DNA from: a virus | IMG/VR virus record: IMGVR_UViG_3300045988_048147 | Coordinates: 1 to 33,237 of that record | DNA: 33,237 nucleotides | Direction: 5' to 3' (one strand) | Shown: piece after piece, positions 3,064 to 32,880 of the stretch | How positions within the stretch are numbered: the stretch's first letter is position 1 | How the letters are laid out: each line of letters begins with the position of its first letter | Notes under the pieces: generated by a model | The model's input: only the letters and a program-made list of their open reading frames with translations | Told to the model about the DNA's origin: nothing | The model's database searches: none | Program-made: the position numbers and the translations under genes

Positions 3064-3420
3064 TTGGGGCGAATTGCAATCACGCGTGAAACCATTAAGG
3101 CGCAAACCGTGACGGCCATGAAAAAGATGGGTACTTTTTCCCCAGAATATGAGCCGATAATCGATATTTACGCCGGATTGCGAGAGCAATATTACCGGCT
3201 TAACACGGAGTATGTGGACGGAAAAAGCTACCATTACGCGACCCCGACAGCGGACGGCGGCGCCAAAAAATCCCCTCTCTCCATGACCATTGAGAGCCTG
3301 CGCAAGGACATCCTGCTGTACTCCGACCGGCTGATGCTCAACCCCAAGTCCCGGGCCGACGCCGGAAAGGGAAAGCCCAAGAAATCCAGGCTGGCGGAGG
3401 CGCTGAAGGATGGCCCGTAA
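3064..3420 (+). CDS. terS: Terminase small subunit (P27-like)
   Basis: TTG start 7 nt after GGGGAGGAGG. Sits immediately upstream of and overlapping terL. The basic C-terminal [16 protein letters not shown] is typical of the family. Confidence 0.65.
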
Positions 3421-5146
3421 AAAGGCGGAGCGTTTCCCCAACTGGGCGACGGTCATGGAGTATGTGGACTCCATCCTAGAGGGGCGGAAGATCGCCTGCC
3501 AGGAGCTGATCCAGGCGTGCCAGAGGTTCAAACGGGATCTGGATGACCCAACCTGGGACTTCCGACCTAGGGATGCGGAGTTTGTAATCCGGATCATCGA
3601 GACCACCTTCGTCCACCAGCAGGGAGAGCGCCTGGACGGGACCCCGCTGCGGGGGCAGCCGTTCCTACTGGAGCCATTCCATAAGTTCATCGTGTACAAC
3701 CTTCTGGGATTCTTTCTGACGGGGACCAAGGAGCGGCGGTACAAGGAGGCCCTGATCTATATCCCCCGGAAAAATATCAAGACGTCGTTTGCTGCGGCGC
3801 TGGCCTGGGGCCTGGCGCTGCTGAACCGGCGGAGCGGGTCCAAGGTCTACATTGTGGCTGCGGCCCTGAAGCAGAGCCTGGAGTCTTTCAACTTCATCAA
3901 TTTCAACTTGGAGCAGATGGGGGAGAAGGATAACTTCCGGGTGATCGACAACAACCAGGAGCACAGCATTCAAGGCGACCTGGGGGACGGGTCCATCTTC
4001 ATCCAGGCCCTGGCGGCCAACCCGGACCGCCAGGATTCCCTGAACTGCAACGTGGCTATCGCAGACGAAATGCACGCCTACAAGACCCCGAAGCAGTACA
4101 ACATCATCCGGGAGGCCATGAAGGCCTACACCAACAAGTTGATGATCGGCATCTCTACGGCCGGTGACAATGAGCAGGGCTTCCTGGGGCAGCGGCTGAA
4201 ATACTGCCGCAAGGTCCTGGACGGGACCATCAGGGATGACCAGTATTTTATCTTCATGTGCTGCGCACCAGAAGGCGTCAAGGACGGGACCGTGGACTTC
4301 ACGGATCCCAAGATCCAGGAGATGGCCAACCCGGCGTACGGTGTCAGCATCCGGCCGGCGGACATCCTCAACGATGCTCTGCAGGCGGTCAACGACCCGC
4401 AGCAGCGAAAGGACTTTTTCGCAAAATCGCTGAATGTCTACACCAACGCTATGCGGGCCTGGTTCGACATCGATGAGTTCCGCAAGAGCGATGCGGGCTA
4501 CGACTGGACGCTGGAGCAGCTGGCCAAGCTGCCCATTGACTGGTATGGAGGCGCGGACCTCTCCAAGCTCCACGACCTGACGGCGGCGGCCCTGTTCGGC
4601 CACTACAAGGATGTGGATATTATCATCACCCACGCATTTTTCCCGGTGGTGGCGGCCCATGTCAAGGCGGATCAGGATCAAATCCCGCTGTTCGGCTGGG
4701 CGGATGATGGATGGCTGACGCTGTGCAACTCCCCGACGGTCAATCACGCCGATGTGGTCAACTGGTTCATCGACATGCGGCGGCGGGGCTTCAAAATCCG
4801 CCAGGTGGGCCATGACCGGAAATTCTGCCGGGAATACTTCGTGGCGATGAAAAATGCCCGGTTCAAAATCATCGACCAGCCGCAGTATTACTACAAAAAG
4901 TCCGAGGGCTTCCGACATATCGAGGCAGCAGCCAAGAACGGGAATCTCTACTACCTCCACAGCGAGGCCTATGAATACTGCGTGGCCAATGTGACCGCCG
5001 TGGAAAAGACGGACGACATGGTCCAATATGACAAGATCCGGCCGGAGCAGCGGATCGACCTGTTTGACGCCTCCGTGTTCGCCTGTATCCGGTACCTGGA
5101 GAACATGGAGAAATCCCAGAAGGCAAAGGAGTGGCTTGGAAAGTGA
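3410..5146 (+). CDS. terL: Terminase large subunit
   Basis: 578 aa, Terminase_1-like. Contains IPRKNIKTS (Walker A-like), AIADEMHAY (Walker B-like) and a C-terminal nuclease-like region. Confidence 0.9.
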
Positions 5147-6330
5147 GTAAGAGACGGCGGGCGCGGCCGGCGCCCAGAGAGCGCCCTAAGCAGACCCGGA
5201 GCATGGCATGGCTGTGTGCCCCGGATACATACGACAGCCTTTGCTGCCAGGGCTATGTGAGCCTGGCGGCAAATCCGGAGATCTGCGCCGGTGTTGATAC
5301 CATCGCCCGGCTGGTGGGGTCCATGACCATCCACCTGATGGAGAACCGGGAGGACGGGGACGTCCGCATCCTCAATGAGCTGAGCCGCAAGATCGACATC
5401 GAGCCCAATGCCTACATGACACGAGCGGACTTCGTTCACTGGATTGTGCGGACCATGTACCTGGAGGGAAACGGCAACGCTGTGGTGTGGCCACGTACTC
5501 GTGCGGGCATCATCCAGGACCTGCAGCCCATCCCGTCGGCCTTTGTTGCATTTATCCCGGACGGCTGGGGCTACCGGGTAATCGTCAACGGCAAAGAGTA
5601 TGATCCGGACGACGTGCTCCACTTCGTTCTTAATCCGGATCCGTTGTATCCCTGGCTTGGGACGGGGTATCGGATCTCCCTGGCGGACGTGGCCCAGAAC
5701 TTAAAACAGGCAGCGACCACCCAGAAAGGGTTCATGGAATCCAAGTGGAAACCGTCCCTGATCGTCAAGGTGGATGCTCTGACGGAGGAATTTTCCAGCC
5801 CGGAGGGGCGCCGGGTACTGCTGGAGAGCTACATTGACACCGCCCGAGCCGGAGAGCCCTGGATGATCCCGGCGGAGCAGTTTGAGGTGGAGCAGGTGAA
5901 GCCCCTGACCCTGAGTGATCTGGCCCTGGACGCCATGGTGACGCTGGACAAGCGGACCGTGGCGGCGGTGCTGGGAATCCCGGCTTTCGTGCTGGGCGTG
6001 GGAGACTTCAATCGGGACGCCTGGAACAACTTCATCAACACAACGATCATGCCCCTGGCCCGGAACATGGAGCAGGAGCTGACGAAAAAGCTGCTGTATT
6101 CGCCCGGCTGGTTTTTCCGGTTCAACTCCTGGAGCCTGTTTTCCTACTCCATCAACGAGCTGGTGAGCGCCGGTGCGGAGATGGTGGACCGGATGGCCCT
6201 GCGGCGGAACGAGTGGCGCGGCTGGGTCAACCTGCCGCCGGATCCGGAGATGAACCAACTGCTGGCCCTGGAGAACTACATCCCTGTAGAAAAACTGGGA
6301 GACCAAAATAAACTCAACGGAGGTGAGTGA
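5131..6330 (+). CDS. Portal protein, HK97 family
   Basis: Position after terL and overall HK97-portal-like sequence ([22 protein letters not shown]...). Start uncertain: GTG 5131, GTG 5143 or ATG 5203. Confidence 0.85.
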
Positions 6331-18058: not shown

Positions 18059-18334
18059 ATGGACATTTCCTCTCTTGGCATCACCGGAGTGGCGGCTATC
18101 ACCGTCATCTGCCTGCTGATTGGGCAGGGCGTGAAAGCGTCCTCTCTGGACAGCAAGTTCATCCCCATCATCTGCGGCGTGTGCGGTGGCCTGCTGGGCA
18201 TTGCCGGTATGTTCATCATGCCGGACTTCCCGGCCACGGACTACATCACTGCGGCGGCTGTGGGCATTGTGAGCGGCCTGGCTGCTACCGGAGCCAACCA
18301 GGTAATCAAGCAGCTGGGAAGTGACAGTAAATGA
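18059..18334 (+). CDS. Holin (phi LC3-like)
   Basis: 91 aa with hydrophobic segments GITGVAAITVICLLIG, FIPIICGVCGGLLGIAGMFI and AAAVGIVSGLAATG. Overlaps the endolysin start. Confidence 0.75.
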   Translation: MDISSLGITGVAAITVICLLIGQGVKASSLDSKFIPIICGVCGGLLGIAGMFIMPDFPATDYITAAAVGIVSGLAATGANQVIKQLGSDSK

Positions 18335-19023
18335 GCTACACGATAAAGGAGCAGCTGGCGAACTCCGGGAACTATGGCGGTTCCCGGAACGCCAGCCAAA
18401 TCCGGTATCTAGTGTACCACTACACCGGAAATGACGGGGACAAGGCGGCAAACAACGCAAAGTATTTTCAGAACAACATCGTCAAGGCCAGCGCCCACTA
18501 CTTTGTCGATGATACTACAGTCTGGCGATCTGTGCCTGATCTAAAAGTGGCATGGTCCGTCGGCGGCAGCAAGTACGCCAACGCCGATAAGACTGGCGGC
18601 GGCACCATGTACGGCGTTATCAGCAACACCAACAGCCTTTCCATTGAGATGTGCGACACCATCCGGAACGGTGTCTATCAGGCCAGCGAAGCAACTCTTG
18701 CCAACGCTGCCGCCCTGGGCCGGACACTGATGGAAAAGTACGGCATCCCTATTGAGAACGTGTACCGTCACTTTGATGTGACAGGGAAGCACTGCCCGTC
18801 GTACTTGGTGAACGCCCAGAAGTGGGCAGAGTTCAAGAAGAGACTGGAGGTCAAGATCATGGACAATACACCCAGCGGCGCCCACAAGGAGGGCGTGGAA
18901 TGGGCCGTTGCAAACGGCATCCTGACGGGCAACAGCGAGGGGGACCTGATGCTCTCCCAGCCCGTCACCCGGCAGCAGATGTGTACCATGCTGTATCGGT
19001 TTTGGAAGTTGATTGGCCGATAA
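18331..19023 (+). CDS. Endolysin: N-acetylmuramoyl-L-alanine amidase (Amidase_2/PGRP) with an SLH-like C-terminal wall-binding repeat
   Basis: YLVYHYTGN...AHYFVDD...LSIEMC...HFDVTGKHCP. C-terminus GVEWAVANGILTGNSEGDLMLSQPVTRQQMCTMLYRF. Confidence 0.9.
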   Translation: MSYTIKEQLANSGNYGGSRNASQIRYLVYHYTGNDGDKAANNAKYFQNNIVKASAHYFVDDTTVWRSVPDLKVAWSVGGSKYANADKTGGGTMYGVISNTNSLSIEMCDTIRNGVYQASEATLANAAALGRTLMEKYGIPIENVYRHFDVTGKHCPSYLVNAQKWAEFKKRLEVKIMDNTPSGAHKEGVEWAVANGILTGNSEGDLMLSQPVTRQQMCTMLYRFWKLIGR

Positions 19024-19067: not shown

Positions 19068-19328
19068 CTAGGGATATAACTGAATTTTTAGAGGGTTCGA
19101 ATCTTTTTCTCTAACTCCGGCCTCCGTTTGGAGGTCGGGATTTTTTTGCTTTTCAGCATTTATCCGTTCAATAGCTCTCTTGATTTTTTCTTCTGTTCCA
19201 ATTTGAGGTTTAGTACCAGAAAGGAGGTTTTTAATTGTCGTTTGGTGAACACCGGACAATTTTGCAATTCTGTATTCCGTTAGATTGTTTTTCTGCATTT
19301 CCTCTTGTAGCCATTGTGAAAAATCCAT
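19068..19328 (-). CDS. cI-like repressor, HTH only, no S24 peptidase domain
   Basis: The only convincing minus-strand gene. Internal Met start chosen because the longer ORF would overlap the promoter. MDFSQWLQEEMQKNNLTEYRIAKLSGVHQTTIKNLLSG. Confidence 0.75.
   Translation of the reverse strand: MDFSQWLQEEMQKNNLTEYRIAKLSGVHQTTIKNLLSGTKPQIGTEEKIKRAIERINAEKQKNPDLQTEAGVREKDSNPLKIQLYP
19117..19147 (+). terminator. Rho-independent terminator of the late/lysis operon
   Basis: CCGGCCTCC-GTTT-GGAGGTCGG (9 bp, one G-T pair), then GATTTTTTT. It lies inside the 3' end of the convergent repressor ORF. Confidence 0.7.
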
Positions 19329-19342
19329 AATAAATACCCCTA

Positions 19343-19409
19343 AAAATAGTCTAATATGACTACGAGAAAATAGCCTAAAAATAGTTGACAATAATCTGAA
19401 AATAGTCTA
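19343..19409. promoter_or_regulatory. Four direct operator-like repeats AAAATAG(T/C)(C/T)(T/G)A
   Basis: Copies at 19343-19353, 19367-19377, 19378-19388 and 19399-19409 in the divergent repressor/cro intergenic region. Confidence 0.6.
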
Positions 19410-19413
19410 TAAT
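19385..19413 (+). promoter_or_regulatory. Consensus sigma-70-type promoter facing the cro-like gene
   Basis: TTGACA (19385-19390), a 17-nt spacer, then TATAAT (19408-19413). Overlapped by operator copies 3 and 4. Confidence 0.7.
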
Positions 19414-26191: not shown

Positions 26192-26568
26192 TTTTTGAAA
26201 TTCCGTATCCGCCCACCAAAAGGGGAAAAGCGGCCTGGAACAAGCGGTTTGGCCTGAATGCGTATTATGCCGGGAAACATTGGTCACAGCGGAAGCGGGA
26301 CGCAGAAGAACTCCACTCTCTGGCGCTGTGGTCCATGAAAAAGGCGCATATCCGAAAACAGTTCGTCAAAGGTCCTGTCGAAGTCATTTTCCGCTGGAAC
26401 GACGGCCTGGACGTGGACAATCACGCCGCCATGGGCAAGGCGTTTGTGGACGCCATGAAAGGCTACATACTGCCGGACGACAACCGGGAATGGGTGCGGA
26501 AAGTGTCCCATGAATTTTGGGAAAACGAGAGTATACAGGTGGAGGTAAGGCCCTATGGGCGAACTTGA
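26188..26568 (+). CDS. rusA: RusA-like Holliday junction resolvase
   Basis: TTG start after AAGGAGGA. LDVDNHAAMGKAFVDAMKGYILPDDNREWV matches the RusA acidic catalytic motifs. Confidence 0.6.
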   Translation: MIFEIPYPPTKRGKAAWNKRFGLNAYYAGKHWSQRKRDAEELHSLALWSMKKAHIRKQFVKGPVEVIFRWNDGLDVDNHAAMGKAFVDAMKGYILPDDNREWVRKVSHEFWENESIQVEVRPYGRT

Positions 26569-26785
26569 ACAATATCTAGTCCCCATCCGGCGTTACTCTG
26601 CTAACCCCTGCATGGATTGCTGCCTCCCAATCAGCAAGTGTCCATGGCTGCGGGAAGAGAAACCAGTACCGGGCTGGACAGCTAAGAAACGGACGTTTGT
26701 TGTTGGGAGAAACCGGGGCGGGCGGAAAACATGGGTGACTACATACGCCATCGAGAGCTGCCCGCTGGAAAGGAAGAGAGAATGA
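26555..26785 (+). CDS. Cys-rich hypothetical protein (putative zinc-binding)
   Basis: CMDCCLPISKCPW...GW...IESCP. Confidence 0.5.
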   Translation: MGELEQYLVPIRRYSANPCMDCCLPISKCPWLREEKPVPGWTAKKRTFVVGRNRGGRKTWVTTYAIESCPLERKRE

Positions 26786-27084
26786 TGGATGATATGAAGC
26801 GCGCCCTGTTGGGCGACCACGAGGCAGCCAAGCGGCTGACGGATGCGGGTGTGTTGCTGCCGTGTCCTATGTGCGGAGCCACAATAGACAGACAAGCCGA
26901 AAAAGACACCCTTATGCTGAATGAGTTTCAACTCGGAAAATGGTGTTTCATACATTTCTGCAATGAAACTTGTGACGGCGTAACGATTTACGGTAAAACC
27001 GAAGCGGAGGTTATCGCAAAATGGAACACTCGCGCGCCGATTCTGAGCGGGTCAGAGAGTGAGATGCTGGATGCCAAAGATTGA
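26782..27084 (+). CDS. Lar-family zinc-ribbon protein, paralogue 3
   Basis: ATGA overlap. LLPCPMCG...FCNETCDG...AEVIAKWNTRAP. Confidence 0.65.
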   Translation: MMDDMKRALLGDHEAAKRLTDAGVLLPCPMCGATIDRQAEKDTLMLNEFQLGKWCFIHFCNETCDGVTIYGKTEAEVIAKWNTRAPILSGSESEMLDAKD

Positions 27085-27862
27085 ACTATATCACGATAAT
27101 TTTCAAAACTTCAAGCGGTACAACATCCCAAAGGCCCAACTTGTGATTGCAGATATCCCGTATAACATCGGAGCGGATGCCTATGCCAGCAATCCCGTGT
27201 GGTATCAGGGCGGAGACAACAAAAATGGGGAGAGCAAACTGGCAAAGCAGAGTTTCTTCCACACAGATGGGACATTCAAAATTGCGGAATATATGCATTT
27301 TTGCAACCGTCTCTTGAAAAAAGAGCCAAAAGAAAGGGGACAGGCCCCGGCCATGATTGTATTCTGCGCATTTGAACAGATGCAGACAGTGATTGACTAT
27401 GGAAAGCGATATGGCTTTTTACATAACTATCCCCTGTTCTTCGTCAAGAACTATTCCGCGCAGGTTTTGAAAGCCAATATGAAGATCGTTGGTGCCACAG
27501 AGTTTGCCATCGTGTTGTACCGAAACAAACTGCCAAAATTCCGCAATAACGGCCATATGGTATTTAACTGGTTTGAATGGCACAGGGACAGTGCCAAGGA
27601 CTACCCCAAAATCCATCCAACACAAAAGCCCGTTGGATTGCTGAAGCGGTTAATCGAAGTCTTTACAGATCCGGGGGATATTGTGGTTGACCCGTGTGCT
27701 GGTAGTGGGGCCACCCTTCGGGCCGCTTATGAGCTGGGGCGAAACTCTTATGGGTTCGAGGTTGACCGGAATTTCTATCAAAAGGCAGTAAAAGAAATGA
27801 TTAAACCGGCGACAAGAGCGCCAGAGTTTGAGCAGATGGAGATACTGGAGGGGATGGAATGA
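27071..27862 (+). CDS. DNA methyltransferase, beta-class N6-adenine or N4-cytosine (N6_N4_Mtase family)
   Basis: Motif IV DIPYNIG lies N-terminal; HPTQKP and motif I VVDPCAGSGATLRAA lie C-terminal. Confidence 0.88.
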   Translation: MPKIELYHDNFQNFKRYNIPKAQLVIADIPYNIGADAYASNPVWYQGGDNKNGESKLAKQSFFHTDGTFKIAEYMHFCNRLLKKEPKERGQAPAMIVFCAFEQMQTVIDYGKRYGFLHNYPLFFVKNYSAQVLKANMKIVGATEFAIVLYRNKLPKFRNNGHMVFNWFEWHRDSAKDYPKIHPTQKPVGLLKRLIEVFTDPGDIVVDPCAGSGATLRAAYELGRNSYGFEVDRNFYQKAVKEMIKPATRAPEFEQMEILEGME

Positions 27863-28551
27863 AGCCGATTTATGAGCCGAAAGGGAAAGCCAAAGAGTAC
27901 GGTGACTATGCGCTGAATATCTACACTGGGTGCCCGCACCGTTGCTATTATTGCTTTGCGCCGAGTGTATTGCATCGAGACCGAGAGAAGTTTCACGCAG
28001 ATGTCCGGCCCCGTGATGGAATTGTAGAGGCGACCAAGGCACAGTTGGAGAGGGAGCACATTACCGGAAGAATTATTCACCTGTGTTTTACTTGTGACCC
28101 ATATCCGACCGGCTACGATACCACGCCGACACGGGAGATCATCAAAGTTTTGAAGGAATACGGGAACCGCGTCCAGATTCTCACAAAGGGGGATGGGAGC
28201 CGGGACTTCGATCTGCTAGACAGCGAGGATTGGTACGGCGTGACCATTGACGGCTCCGCCAGCGGCCCATACGCGCCGATCGACCGGATGGCAGACCTGT
28301 ATGCCGCAAAGTGCAGGGGAATCAAGACCTGGTGCTCCTTTGAACCTGTCCTATACGCTGATGCAGTGCTAGACTGTATCGAAAATTACCATGACATCTT
28401 CGACAAGGTGAAAATTGGGAAGCTGAACTACTACCCGTCGAATATAGAATGGGCAAAGTTTGGGCGAGAAGCCGAAGCACTTTGTCAGCGACTTGGCCTG
28501 GACTACTACATTAAGGAAAGTTTGCGGAAAGAAATAGAGGCCCACCCATGA
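27859..28551 (+). CDS. Radical SAM protein, SplB/COG1533-like minimal barrel
   Basis: ATGA overlap with the methyltransferase. LNIYTGCPHRCYYCFAP gives a CX3CX2C cluster-binding motif at aa 25-32. Confidence 0.75.
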   Translation: MKPIYEPKGKAKEYGDYALNIYTGCPHRCYYCFAPSVLHRDREKFHADVRPRDGIVEATKAQLEREHITGRIIHLCFTCDPYPTGYDTTPTREIIKVLKEYGNRVQILTKGDGSRDFDLLDSEDWYGVTIDGSASGPYAPIDRMADLYAAKCRGIKTWCSFEPVLYADAVLDCIENYHDIFDKVKIGKLNYYPSNIEWAKFGREAEALCQRLGLDYYIKESLRKEIEAHP

Positions 28552-28970
28552 GCATGACGCTGGAAGAAGCGTTCTCGATTTTACAAGAAAAATATGACTA
28601 TTGCAAATCGTTTTATGATTTGGCGGCAAACCCAGAAAAAGATTACAAAGAAATGGCAAAATATCTGCAAGCACTGCAAGCGGTCCTCGTTGCCCTCCGC
28701 CGGGAGCGAGTGGAAAAGGTGTGGAAGGGTGAGTGGGTTGAGCACCACAAGCACCGCGGAGGGTTTCGCCGTGTGACTGGCATGGATGACATGGGCGAAC
28801 AGCATGAAGTTACGATTGACGAGCGCTGTGAATACGATGACCTTTACTGCTCAAAGTGCGGCAAGCAAAGCCCGGACAATTTCCTGAATTTTTGCGGTTA
28901 CTGTGGCGCTCCCATGACGGACGAGGCCGTGGAGATGGTGATGGAGAGATTAAATAAATTGGAGGATTGA
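28548..28970 (+). CDS. Hypothetical protein with a C-terminal zinc ribbon
   Basis: ATGA overlap with the radical SAM gene. CSKCGKQSPDNFLNFCGYCGAPM. Confidence 0.55.
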   Translation: MSMTLEEAFSILQEKYDYCKSFYDLAANPEKDYKEMAKYLQALQAVLVALRRERVEKVWKGEWVEHHKHRGGFRRVTGMDDMGEQHEVTIDERCEYDDLYCSKCGKQSPDNFLNFCGYCGAPMTDEAVEMVMERLNKLED

Positions 28971-31221: not shown

Positions 31222-31468
31222 AACTATACCGCCGATGTATCCCACTGAATTTGTCGAACGGGAATTAGGGATTAGAACTGACTGCTATAACCATAGCTGC
31301 CCATTCAGGGTGAATGATACCAGCAGCGCCAGCCGCTGCGAGTGTACGGCCTGCCCGAATCGGTGTACGGGCGATTTCTCCATTGCGTGGAACCGGACGC
31401 TGACAGATGAAGAGTTGGAAATCATTGAACGGATTGTGGACGATCACGAACGAAGGTGGAGCGAATGA
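31211..31468 (+). CDS. Hypothetical Cys-rich protein
   Basis: ATG after GGAGGGAGCAGG. Internal start of track ORF 31151-31468. Confidence 0.45.
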   Translation: MENKTIPPMYPTEFVERELGIRTDCYNHSCPFRVNDTSSASRCECTACPNRCTGDFSIAWNRTLTDEELEIIERIVDDHERRWSE

Positions 31469-31779
31469 AGGAGTACATCGAGAGGACGGTCGCTGTCAAG
31501 AAATTTGAGAACTATCGCCGTGATTGCGAAGAAGAAAACGACGAAAGAGCTGCACAGATTTTTGAGGATTGCATATCCGAGCTTGTGGCTATCTCCGCCG
31601 CAGACGTTGTGGAGGTGAGGAACGGGAGATGGGAAAAGTTTTCAACCGCAAGCGGGATTATTTCAAGAGTTAGGTGCTCTGTTTGTGCTGGAACACAGCC
31701 GTTAACATTTGAGAGCATGCCATACTGCCCCAACTGCGGCGCTCGCATGGACAAGGAGGACGGGCATGAGATTAGCTGA
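31465..31779 (+). CDS. Hypothetical zinc-ribbon protein
   Basis: ATGA overlap. RCSVCAG...YCPNCGARM. Confidence 0.5.
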   Translation: MKEYIERTVAVKKFENYRRDCEEENDERAAQIFEDCISELVAISAADVVEVRNGRWEKFSTASGIISRVRCSVCAGTQPLTFESMPYCPNCGARMDKEDGHEIS

Positions 31780-32035: not shown

Positions 32036-32222
32036 AACCATCCCTTATCCATGCCATACCTGCCCACTTGGGCCAAGAGAGCTGTTTTGGACCTGTGATT
32101 GTGAGAAATATCAAAAGTGGTTGCAATTTACAAGCAAGTCAGATGCAAGTTTAAAGCAAGAGGAGGCCAACATGGACAAGCCGAGAATTTGCGAGGTGAA
32201 CGTGAATGGGCAGATTGATTGA
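32025..32222 (+). CDS. Hypothetical Cys-rich protein
   Basis: ATG after GGGAGGA. PCHTCPLGPRELFWTCDCEKY. Confidence 0.4.
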   Translation: MSSETIPYPCHTCPLGPRELFWTCDCEKYQKWLQFTSKSDASLKQEEANMDKPRICEVNVNGQID

Positions 32223-32880
32223 TTTATCAGGAAAGAGGTTTGGCAGGCTGCTGGCTATCGAAAGAGATACAAGTAGAAGCCCAAAAGAACGAAAATATAG
32301 AACGCTTTGGAAATGCAAATGTGACTGCGGTAAAGAAGTTGTTGTTTGGGCAAACAACTTGGTAAGAGGGCACACATTAAGCTGTGGGTGCTACAAAATT
32401 GAAACTTTTATTGATAGAGAAACAGAACACGGAATGTCAGATACAAGGCTATACGAGATATGGAAAGGAATGAGACGCCGGTGTCTTGGCCCAAAAAGGA
32501 ATAGCTACCACAACTATGGAGGGAGAGGAATTGTAGTTTGTGCAGATTGGGAAAATGACTTTAAGGCGTTTCAAAAGTGGGCGATTGAAAATGGCTATAA
32601 AAATGGCCTTACTATTGACAGAAAGAATAATGACGGTCCGTATAGTCCTGAGAATTGTAAATGGGCAACCATAAAGGAACAGGCCAATAACAGGAGAACG
32701 AATAGATATATTGATGTATTCGGGGAGCATTTGACGATTTCTGAAGCCGCCCAGAAGTATGGGATAAAACCTTGTACGATTAGAGCAAGAATTGAGCATG
32801 GATGGGCTCCAGAAAGAGCAGTATCCCTCCGCCCCGGCGAAACAGTCAAACTTGACGAGATCATCGGAGGTGCCCAATGA
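32206..32880 (+). CDS. Free-standing HNH (HNH_3-type) homing endonuclease with a C-terminal HTH
   Basis: GKRFGRLLAIE...CKCDCG...CGC; LTIDRKNNDGPYSPENCKWATIKEQANNRR; C-terminus TISEAAQKYGIKPCTIRARIEHGW. Confidence 0.8.
   Translation: MGRLIDLSGKRFGRLLAIERDTSRSPKERKYRTLWKCKCDCGKEVVVWANNLVRGHTLSCGCYKIETFIDRETEHGMSDTRLYEIWKGMRRRCLGPKRNSYHNYGGRGIVVCADWENDFKAFQKWAIENGYKNGLTIDRKNNDGPYSPENCKWATIKEQANNRRTNRYIDVFGEHLTISEAAQKYGIKPCTIRARIEHGWAPERAVSLRPGETVKLDEIIGGAQ

Follow-up and report, generated by a model that had tools for sequence, protein, structure and literature searches.

The four genes at 26782-28970

The stretch of DNA analysed here (the window) is the viral record IMGVR_UViG_3300045988_048147 of IMG/VR, covered over its whole length of 33,237 nucleotides (nt). 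Attention was centred on four genes of its + strand (26782-28970), which encode a Lar-like zinc-ribbon protein, a beta-class DNA methyltransferase, a radical S-adenosylmethionine (radical-SAM) protein of 230 amino acids (aa) and a 140-aa zinc-ribbon protein. A sequence-only reading of the window had assigned the proteins in this way and had proposed that the genes form one acquired cassette, in which the radical-SAM enzyme works together with the methyltransferase. The four assignments were upheld by motifs and profile searches, at differing strength. The co-functional cassette was not supported: each gene occurs without the others and linkage is not conserved across divergent genomes. The four genes very probably do not form an obligate pathway.

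The Lar-like gene (26782-27084, + strand) encodes 100 aa from the ATG at 26782; a longer open reading frame (ORF), starting at 26731, gives 117 aa. The protein carries the motifs CPMCG and CNETC and a C-terminal AKWNTRAP (WNTR motif). It scored 24.1 bits (E 4e-5) with Pfam PF14354 (Lar_restr_allev, gathering score 28.6) and 30.2 bits (E 4e-7) with TIGR03655 (cut-off 39.6), and it matched PHROG 599 ('Lar-like') at E 8e-9. The zinc ribbon and the WNTR motif are shared with Lar of the Rac prophage, but the window protein falls below the curated Lar cut-offs. From these matches it can be described as a small zinc-ribbon protein whose family is named for restriction alleviation. No defence-system model of PADLOC was matched.

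The methyltransferase gene (27071-27862, + strand, alternative GTG start at 27059) encodes 263 aa with the motifs DIPY...HPTQKP...DPCAGSGAT. Motif IV (DIPY, around residue 29) lies N-terminal of motif I (DPCAGSGAT, around residue 205), which is the beta-class order. The match to PF01555 (N6_N4_Mtase) reached 91.8 bits (E 8e-26), above the gathering score of 26.7, and the match to PHROG 67 had E 2e-49. The closest solved structure was 5hfj, a DpnA-type adenine methyltransferase (E 3e-15), and the target chemistry is probably N6-adenine. PADLOC models of type II and orphan methyltransferases were matched, and there is no nuclease gene beside the methyltransferase. At the DNA level the gene is 64-69% identical to genes of lactococcal, lactobacillal and streptococcal phages (temperate Firmicutes phages, e.g. 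Tuc2009, T25 and Lrm1). It is an ordinary orphan phage enzyme of the beta class, and nothing unusual was seen when it was compared with those of the Firmicutes phages.

The radical-SAM gene (27859-28551, + strand) encodes a minimal, stand-alone protein of the PA0069/SplB/DUF5131 branch with the motif NIYTGCPHRCYYCFAP. In the product of the last gene (28548-28970, + strand), the N-terminal part is helical, and the C terminus carries a zinc ribbon (CxxC...CxxC) and a conserved tail, CGAPMTDEAVEMVMERL. Its Pfam zinc-ribbon matches were all sub-threshold. It belongs to PHROG 10714 (unknown function) and matched no PADLOC defence system.

The overlaps and the lower guanine + cytosine (GC) content on which the sequence-only reading had relied were both confirmed. 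The Lar-like and methyltransferase genes overlap by 14 nt (27071-27084), and the next two junctions are ATGA overlaps (27859-27862 and 28548-28551). The GC content of the block is 49.5%, versus 57.8% in the structural genes and 56.2% in the replication genes. The chain of overlaps extends past the block, downstream and also upstream, where it links RusA, a small Cys-rich ORF (orf76, 76 aa, 26555-26785, + strand) and the Lar-like gene, the orf76 stop overlapping the Lar-like start as ATGA. Overlaps were found at 20 of the 25 junctions of the early operon, seven of them being of exactly 4 nt. The low GC content is a mark of the whole 6.5-kb accessory segment and not of the four genes alone, because it stays at 48.8% from the block to the window end. 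Acquisition as a separate, joint cassette is not supported, since overlaps and low GC content are general to the region. No promoter or terminator of note was found inside the four-gene block.

Exchange of the genes among related phages

Thirty-six sibling loci share with the window a DnaB-orf55-RusA-orf76 module that is 94-98% identical, orf76 being kept beside RusA at 83-96% aa identity. The radical-SAM gene was found in none of the 36. Four of them (L144, L145, L146 and L150) keep the methyltransferase of the window at 99-100% aa identity without the radical-SAM gene, and L148 carries Lar by itself (92% nt identity), without the methyltransferase. Homologues of the 140-aa protein were present in 27 of 44 sibling loci lacking the radical-SAM gene.

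In blastn, the match to L144 and L146 runs out exactly at 27862, where the methyltransferase stops. With L148, in which Lar is retained alone, it ends at 27073, the methyltransferase start, and another break falls at 26782/26785, the orf76/Lar junction. At 27835-27862 (+ strand) the 3' end of the upstream gene (...LEGME) holds the ribosome-binding site of the radical-SAM gene, GGAGGGG. This junction is read as a conserved boundary that works as a recombination joint, and the pattern suggests that short conserved gene-end sequences serve as such joints. The four genes are separately exchangeable single-gene units in the accessory segment of a long early operon, and each would be moved in and out by recombination at short conserved gene-boundary sequences. 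The methyltransferase would protect the phage's own DNA.

Closer to the window, wherever a contig encodes an identical radical-SAM protein, Lar, the methyltransferase and the radical-SAM gene stay together as a block, and the gene after them encodes either the 140-aa protein or a 118-aa variant that replaces it. The block is kept even in L099, despite a different replication module. In the P0108 lineage (73% identity, radical-SAM protein of 228 aa), a Dam gene lies two ORFs upstream in some contigs only, the radical-SAM protein being unchanged. In the P0032 lineage, no methyltransferase was found within 4 kb of the radical-SAM gene.

In order to count methyltransferases around the radical-SAM family, loci with relatives of the radical-SAM gene (60 viral and 33 genomic, full-length matches at 49-100% identity) were searched with iterated hidden Markov models (HMMs) for beta N6/N4, Dam-type and cytosine-C5 (C5) enzymes. 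C5 matches were checked for the ENV and PCQ motifs; ENV was present in most and PCQ in many. This census superseded a first pass (30 of 84 loci with a methyltransferase), which had under-detected classical C5 enzymes. The same count was made around three control anchors. The set anchored on ASCH genes, which occupy the same accessory slot in the same phage population, was the best matched and was the control relied on. A DnaN-anchored control of the P0108 lineage yielded three loci only and was dropped.

A methyltransferase was found within 6 kb in 43 of 92 radical-SAM loci (47%; adjacent in 6, within 1 kb in 17) and in 25 of 80 ASCH loci (31%; adjacent in 3, within 1 kb in 11). The two sets did not differ significantly (Fisher p 0.09), and their loci are not independent observations. 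The RusA and DUF551 anchors gave 15 of 80 (19%) and 11 of 80 (14%), respectively, both being controls poorly matched in position or host range. Of the six radical-SAM loci with an adjacent methyltransferase, three belong to the lineage of the window, and the other three have Dam upstream or C5 downstream. Adjacency outside this lineage thus amounts to 3 of 89 loci and involves two enzyme families (Dam and C5). Conserved synteny of the radical-SAM and methyltransferase genes, for which the sequence-only reading had proposed a search, was essentially absent: in 49 of the 92 radical-SAM loci (53%), methyltransferases of all three types (beta, Dam and C5) are lacking within 6 kb.

The other neighbours were no more constant. 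The methyltransferase, Lar and zinc-ribbon proteins of the window were not found by tblastn in most radical-SAM loci. When the flanking ORFs were clustered, no partner occurred in more than 21 of 77 loci and there was no recurrent immediate neighbour. The downstream neighbour of the radical-SAM gene is hypervariable; the 4-nt overlap recurs nonetheless, with unrelated genes.

These counts bear on the pathway proposed in the sequence-only reading, in which the radical-SAM enzyme further modifies the N6-methyladenine or N4-methylcytosine made by the co-translated methyltransferase, with Lar and the zinc ribbon as accessory anti-restriction factors. It is true that the genes adjoin and overlap one another in the window, as they do in all contigs with an identical radical-SAM protein, L099 included, and that methyltransferases are modestly commoner near the radical-SAM gene than near the three control anchors. 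The best remaining point for the pathway is the arrangement in L007, where a different beta-methyltransferase core (5144-6004) occupies the same position and abuts a radical-SAM gene that is 99% identical. In this ORF the core is flanked by a Lar N-terminus, MDDIKLALLGDQEAAKRLTDAGVLL, and by the Lar C-terminal AWNTRAP motif, and the last residues of the ORF, ...EMLEGME, are those found ahead of the radical-SAM ATG in the window. Against the pathway stand the majority of radical-SAM loci without a methyltransferase within 6 kb, the three adjacent loci only outside the lineage of the window (Dam or C5, on either side), the identical methyltransferase found without the radical-SAM gene, and the Dam gene that comes and goes while the radical-SAM protein stays unchanged. 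Moreover, the best-matched control gave p 0.09 and overlaps are normal in the early operon. The pathway is consequently given very little credence. The four-gene cassette is ordinary phage mosaicism and is not worth pursuing as a pathway. Because of the excess of methyltransferases near the radical-SAM gene and the adjacency in L007, the radical-SAM protein may have a loose functional link to methylated DNA.

A separate observation concerns the ASCH genes, for which a link with the radical-SAM gene was also considered. An ASCH-domain protein (C-terminal RPPQSWCYVEE) is encoded directly downstream of the radical-SAM gene in L022, L027, L031, L034, L055 and L087, and also in the distantly related Parabacteroides phage PDS1 (L002). 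ASCH was present in 28-29 of 93 radical-SAM loci, and it is also frequent (16 of 80) in RusA-anchored loci without a radical-SAM gene.

The radical-SAM protein and its candidate substrates

In the 230-aa protein the CX3CX2C motif reads C25-x3-C29-Y-Y-C32, with an aromatic residue before the third Cys. These three Cys and about 12 other positions are invariant in 68 relatives (36-68% identity). The window protein scored 28.5 bits with Pfam Radical_SAM (PF04055), just below the gathering score of 29.5; 67 of the 68 relatives matched this family, the best at E 4e-15. The protein belongs to PHROG 13321 (unknown function), and no PADLOC defence-system model was matched. An AlphaFold (AF2) model (predicted local distance difference test score 88.5) showed a compact radical-SAM beta/alpha barrel of seven beta-alpha units. 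Foldseek against PDB returned radical-SAM enzymes of a generic kind, with SuiB, HydE, anSME and BioB at the top (TM 0.5-0.6). The BFVD fold search likewise gave generic radical-SAM matches only, so that PDB and BFVD together (TM 0.5-0.7) yielded no specific assignment.

The family comprises 4814 clusters at 90% identity (E<=1e-3); at 50% identity it has 2056, of which 279 lie below 1e-30, and its members are mostly 225-270 aa long. The exact protein of the window was recorded in 329 data blocks. Among isolated phages the protein is rare: there are seven records, including Parabacteroides phage PDS1 and Bacteroides phages, and it is annotated just 'radical SAM'. Among the loci the neighbours include SSB, DnaN, DnaC-like, RusA, methyltransferase and ASCH genes. 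No functional study of this clade was found in the literature on COG1533, PA0069, Rv2578c, DUF5131 and TcmP.

In a few long relatives (P0257 with 880 aa, P0230 and P0258), the radical-SAM core is fused to a middle domain that lacks annotation and, with its motifs APHG...HG..D...VQLEI, may be a metal hydrolase. These middle domains have no Pfam match, and a ParB_N fusion in P0257 is the sole recognisable fused domain.

The best HMM matches were to the cellular proteins PA0069 and Rv2578c (COG1533, 'DNA repair photolyase'). The window protein scored 38.6 bits (E 6e-10) with NCBIfam PA0069, far from the cut-off of 360 bits, and 32.3 bits with Rv2578c (cut-off 430). PA0069 was matched by 67 of the 68 relatives (best 9e-29), Rv2578c by 65 and mobile pair protein B (TIGR04470) by 64, all well below the curated cut-offs. 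A TDPYQP-like motif is also shared with PA0069 and Rv2578c. The differences are that only the N-terminal two-thirds align, that the phage clade is about 100 aa shorter, and that PA0069 and Rv2578c are SOS-regulated cellular proteins of unknown reaction, whereas the phage clade sits in phage early regions and not in SOS operons. SplB-like genes are SOS-regulated in several phyla (PMC3765255; PMC8565304) and Rv2578c has a LexA site (PMC3381160). By these profile matches the homology is clear for the family as a whole, and the phage proteins form a clade of their own that is related to PA0069/Rv2578c.

DUF5131 (PF07505, gathering score 28.9 bits; phage Gp37/Gp68) was not matched by the window protein at E<0.01, and was matched by 29 of the 68 relatives at E<1e-3 (best 4e-10). 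Like TIGR04470, it is an uncharacterized radical-SAM-like family of mobile elements, and the matches of the relatives to both are sub-threshold; unlike in these families, no TcmP-type or second radical-SAM partner was found beside the phage gene. Megacluster-5 of RadicalSAM.org holds both DUF5131 and the spore photoproduct lyase subgroup (PMC9477430).

The nearest phage protein with a demonstrated reaction is gp53 of phage M6, a radical-SAM isomerase resembling spore photoproduct lyase, which was shown experimentally to convert N-alpha-glycinylthymidine to C-alpha-glycinylthymidine within DNA (PMC8989533). Alignment with hhalign gave a probability of 97.2% (E 4e-11, 155 columns). Both proteins are phage-encoded, show the same weak NCBIfam pattern (PA0069, mobile pair B and Rv2578c) and share the motifs CxxGCxYC, F-T/S-x-DP-Y/F, EPxA and GIxTxV. 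M6 gp53 differs in having 480 aa with large N- and C-terminal extensions, versus a stand-alone core of 230 aa, and in belonging to a multi-gene cluster for hypermodification of 5-hydroxymethyldeoxyuridine (5-hmdU), with a thymidylate-synthase-like enzyme, a kinase and a pyridoxal phosphate (PLP) enzyme. Its companions (deoxyuridine monophosphate hydroxymethylase, 5-hmdU DNA kinase, amino-acid transferase and PLP decarboxylase) are present in M6; none was found among the window ORFs scanned with Pfam and PHROGs, nor in the called neighbours of related contigs.

The placement near SplB/COG1533 made in the sequence-only reading holds, on the strength of the NCBIfam and profile matches (67 of 68 relatives to PA0069) and of a PDB match to spore photoproduct lyase. 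The latter was reached at E 0.28 only in a single-sequence PDB search; in the profile search it was the second-best match, over about 150 residues (lyase residues 107-256 of 368). SplB (PDB 4fhc; TIGR04070), which acts directly on DNA, belongs to the same branch and can be aligned from the AEYA-x-N/P-L-x-TGC cluster region to beta-5. The solved chains have 368 aa, versus 230 aa here with the cluster motif at residue 25, and the N-terminal extension and the C-terminal DNA-binding region are missing from the phage protein. In the profile alignment to 4fhc, the H-atom-donor Cys of SplB (Cys141 in B. subtilis, Cys140 in Geobacillus) faces the invariant F77. C76 and C79 of the close clade, near F77, are not conserved family-wide.

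The protein could in principle be a plain spore photoproduct lyase orthologue, an outcome named in the sequence-only reading. Once spores had germinated, it would then repair 5-thyminyl-5,6-dihydrothymine in the DNA of the phage or its host. The lyase is among the best PDB sequence matches and some hosts are spore-forming Clostridia. However, the window protein scored 13.3 bits (E 0.029) with TIGR04070, whose cut-off is 400, and 3 of the 68 relatives matched it at E<1e-3. With the donor Cys replaced by F77 and the short length of a protein that lacks the terminal parts, this score led to rejection of the orthologue as a candidate. The lyase was also outside the Foldseek top 50, and relatives of the protein occur in phages of the non-sporulating Bacteroides and Parabacteroides. 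This role is judged highly improbable.

Even less can be said for one of the known small radical-SAM enzymes of phages, either QueE (7-deazaguanine synthesis) or a glycyl-radical activase of the NrdG/PflA type. The size and the N-terminal cluster motif are similar, and BFVD returned QueE-like folds at TM about 0.5. There was no QueE HMM match, NrdG was matched by 1 of the 68 relatives, and neither the window nor its flanks showed a QueC, QueD, FolE, DpdA or NrdD gene, so that this identity has a negligible probability. The absence of QueE partner genes had already been pointed out in the sequence-only reading and was borne out by the Pfam and PHROG scans of the window ORFs. Its remark that no described pathway has this composition stood as well.

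The explanation preferred here is that of four independent genes together with a radical-SAM enzyme that acts on its own, most likely on DNA; as a whole, it is held at slightly better than even confidence. From its sequence, the protein is a minimal, stand-alone and phage-specific offshoot of the SplB/PA0069/DUF5131 branch, and we infer that it is an active enzyme needing no phage partner. It would bind a [4Fe-4S] cluster through C25, C29 and C32, which a host flavodoxin or ferredoxin would reduce. Cleavage of SAM would then give a 5'-deoxyadenosyl radical that would abstract an H atom from the substrate. In an anaerobic host, the enzyme would repair or remodel a base of phage DNA that is being replicated.

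DNA would be the most likely substrate because the sole characterized relatives (spore photoproduct lyase and M6 gp53) attack thymine-derived residues inside DNA, because the cellular cousins (SplB-like proteins and Rv2578c) are SOS-regulated and linked to DNA damage, and because the radical-SAM gene always lies among phage DNA-metabolism genes. Taken by itself, this substrate is put forward tentatively, at a little short of an even chance. To our knowledge, no radical-SAM enzyme other than spore photoproduct lyase and M6 gp53 has been found to act on DNA.

The other role to be weighed is that of an enzyme for anti-defence or host takeover, with a substrate other than DNA. This could be SAM itself, which would be depleted as by the T3 SAM lyase, or else RNA or transfer RNA, a host protein, or a nucleotide or immune signal. 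The protein stands alone, without a conserved partner; it is very common among gut phages and is encoded in a moron-like accessory region beside genes of anti-restriction type; its minimal size, with no recognisable DNA-binding domain, would fit a small substrate. Conversely, it matched no PADLOC defence model, and all detectable homology leads to the COG1533/DUF5131 branch, whose characterized members act on DNA. We know of no precedent for small-molecule action by this branch. A non-DNA role is considered unlikely, while deserving more weight than the lyase, QueE/NrdG or methyltransferase-coupled roles.

Several observations weigh against independent genes with a DNA-acting radical-SAM enzyme. 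The adjacency in L007 and the higher frequency of methyltransferases near the radical-SAM gene than near ASCH, RusA or DUF551 have been described above. The terminal domains of spore photoproduct lyase, the PA0069 family and M6 gp53 are all missing from the window protein, and the lyase did not stand out in the Foldseek search. The DNA substrate proposed for this family is drawn from homology and gene context.

A bolder form of the DNA-acting role would make the family a self-sufficient DNA-modifying or -demodifying enzyme of anaerobe phages. Within polymer DNA, it would subject a base to a novel radical reaction and so make or erase a mark to defeat restriction. The base would possibly be thymine, or one methylated by any methyltransferase that phage or host happens to supply. 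This form is regarded as rather improbable; if true, it would be the first one-gene radical-SAM DNA-modification system. The family, which is very large, found in gut phages and has no assigned function, is a reasonable biochemical target and is not shown to be a surprising system. Knowledge of its substrate would give thousands of phage genes an annotation and could reveal oxygen-independent chemistry of DNA repair or modification in anaerobes.

Setting of the block in the phage genome

The window is most of the genome of one temperate tailed phage. Its relatives were found in Oscillospiraceae, Ruminococcus, Oscillibacter and other Clostridia genomes and metagenome-assembled genomes, and in gut and rumen viromes. 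The host group is gut Oscillospiraceae/Clostridia, and the accessory segment (about 26.8-33.2 kb) is hypervariable. No transfer RNA gene and no Rfam match were found in scans of the window. An anti-repressor lies at 1858 and the large terminase at 3410-5146, with the structural genes 3' of it and the endolysin (18331-19023) after them.

A divergent promoter region follows at about 19.4-19.9 kb. It contains a perfect sigma-70 consensus, TTGACA-17-TATAAT, at 19385-19413 (+ strand) and a near-perfect promoter on the opposite strand at 19856-19828 (- strand), about 0.4 kb away. Both lie in the part of the window with the lowest GC content (43-47%) and adjoin a helix-turn-helix regulator gene (19068-19391, - strand), with which they probably constitute the lysis/lysogeny switch.

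The early operon is long and on the + strand. It encodes a Gam-like protein, an exonuclease, an HNH protein, SSB, a replication initiator, a DnaB-like helicase and RusA, then the four genes, DUF551, about 10 small ORFs and, near its end, an HNH endonuclease (32206-32880). The gene for this endonuclease has a strikingly low GC content at third codon positions (0.39, versus 0.55-0.82 elsewhere) and looks like a recent acquisition.

A paralogue of the 140-aa protein (107 aa, 31456-31779, + strand) is encoded in the accessory region of the same operon, 2.5 kb downstream. It falls into the same BLAST cluster as the product of 28548-28970 and matches PHROG 22543 (E 2e-18) and PHROG 10714 (E 6e-5). 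In the siblings L116 and L131, the stretch at 28890-28951 (about 50-60 nt), which encodes the tail CGAPMTDEAVEMVMERL, is 89-96% identical at the DNA level. It is the only part of the 140-aa gene kept in this way, the rest of the region having no DNA homology, and may be a further mosaic joint of the boundary type.

The siblings L096-L105 carry a second, stronger Lar_restr_allev gene (79-85 aa) directly after a YopX gene; it lies about 5.3 kb past the radical-SAM gene, on the downstream side. The corresponding site would fall just outside the window, beyond its 3' end.

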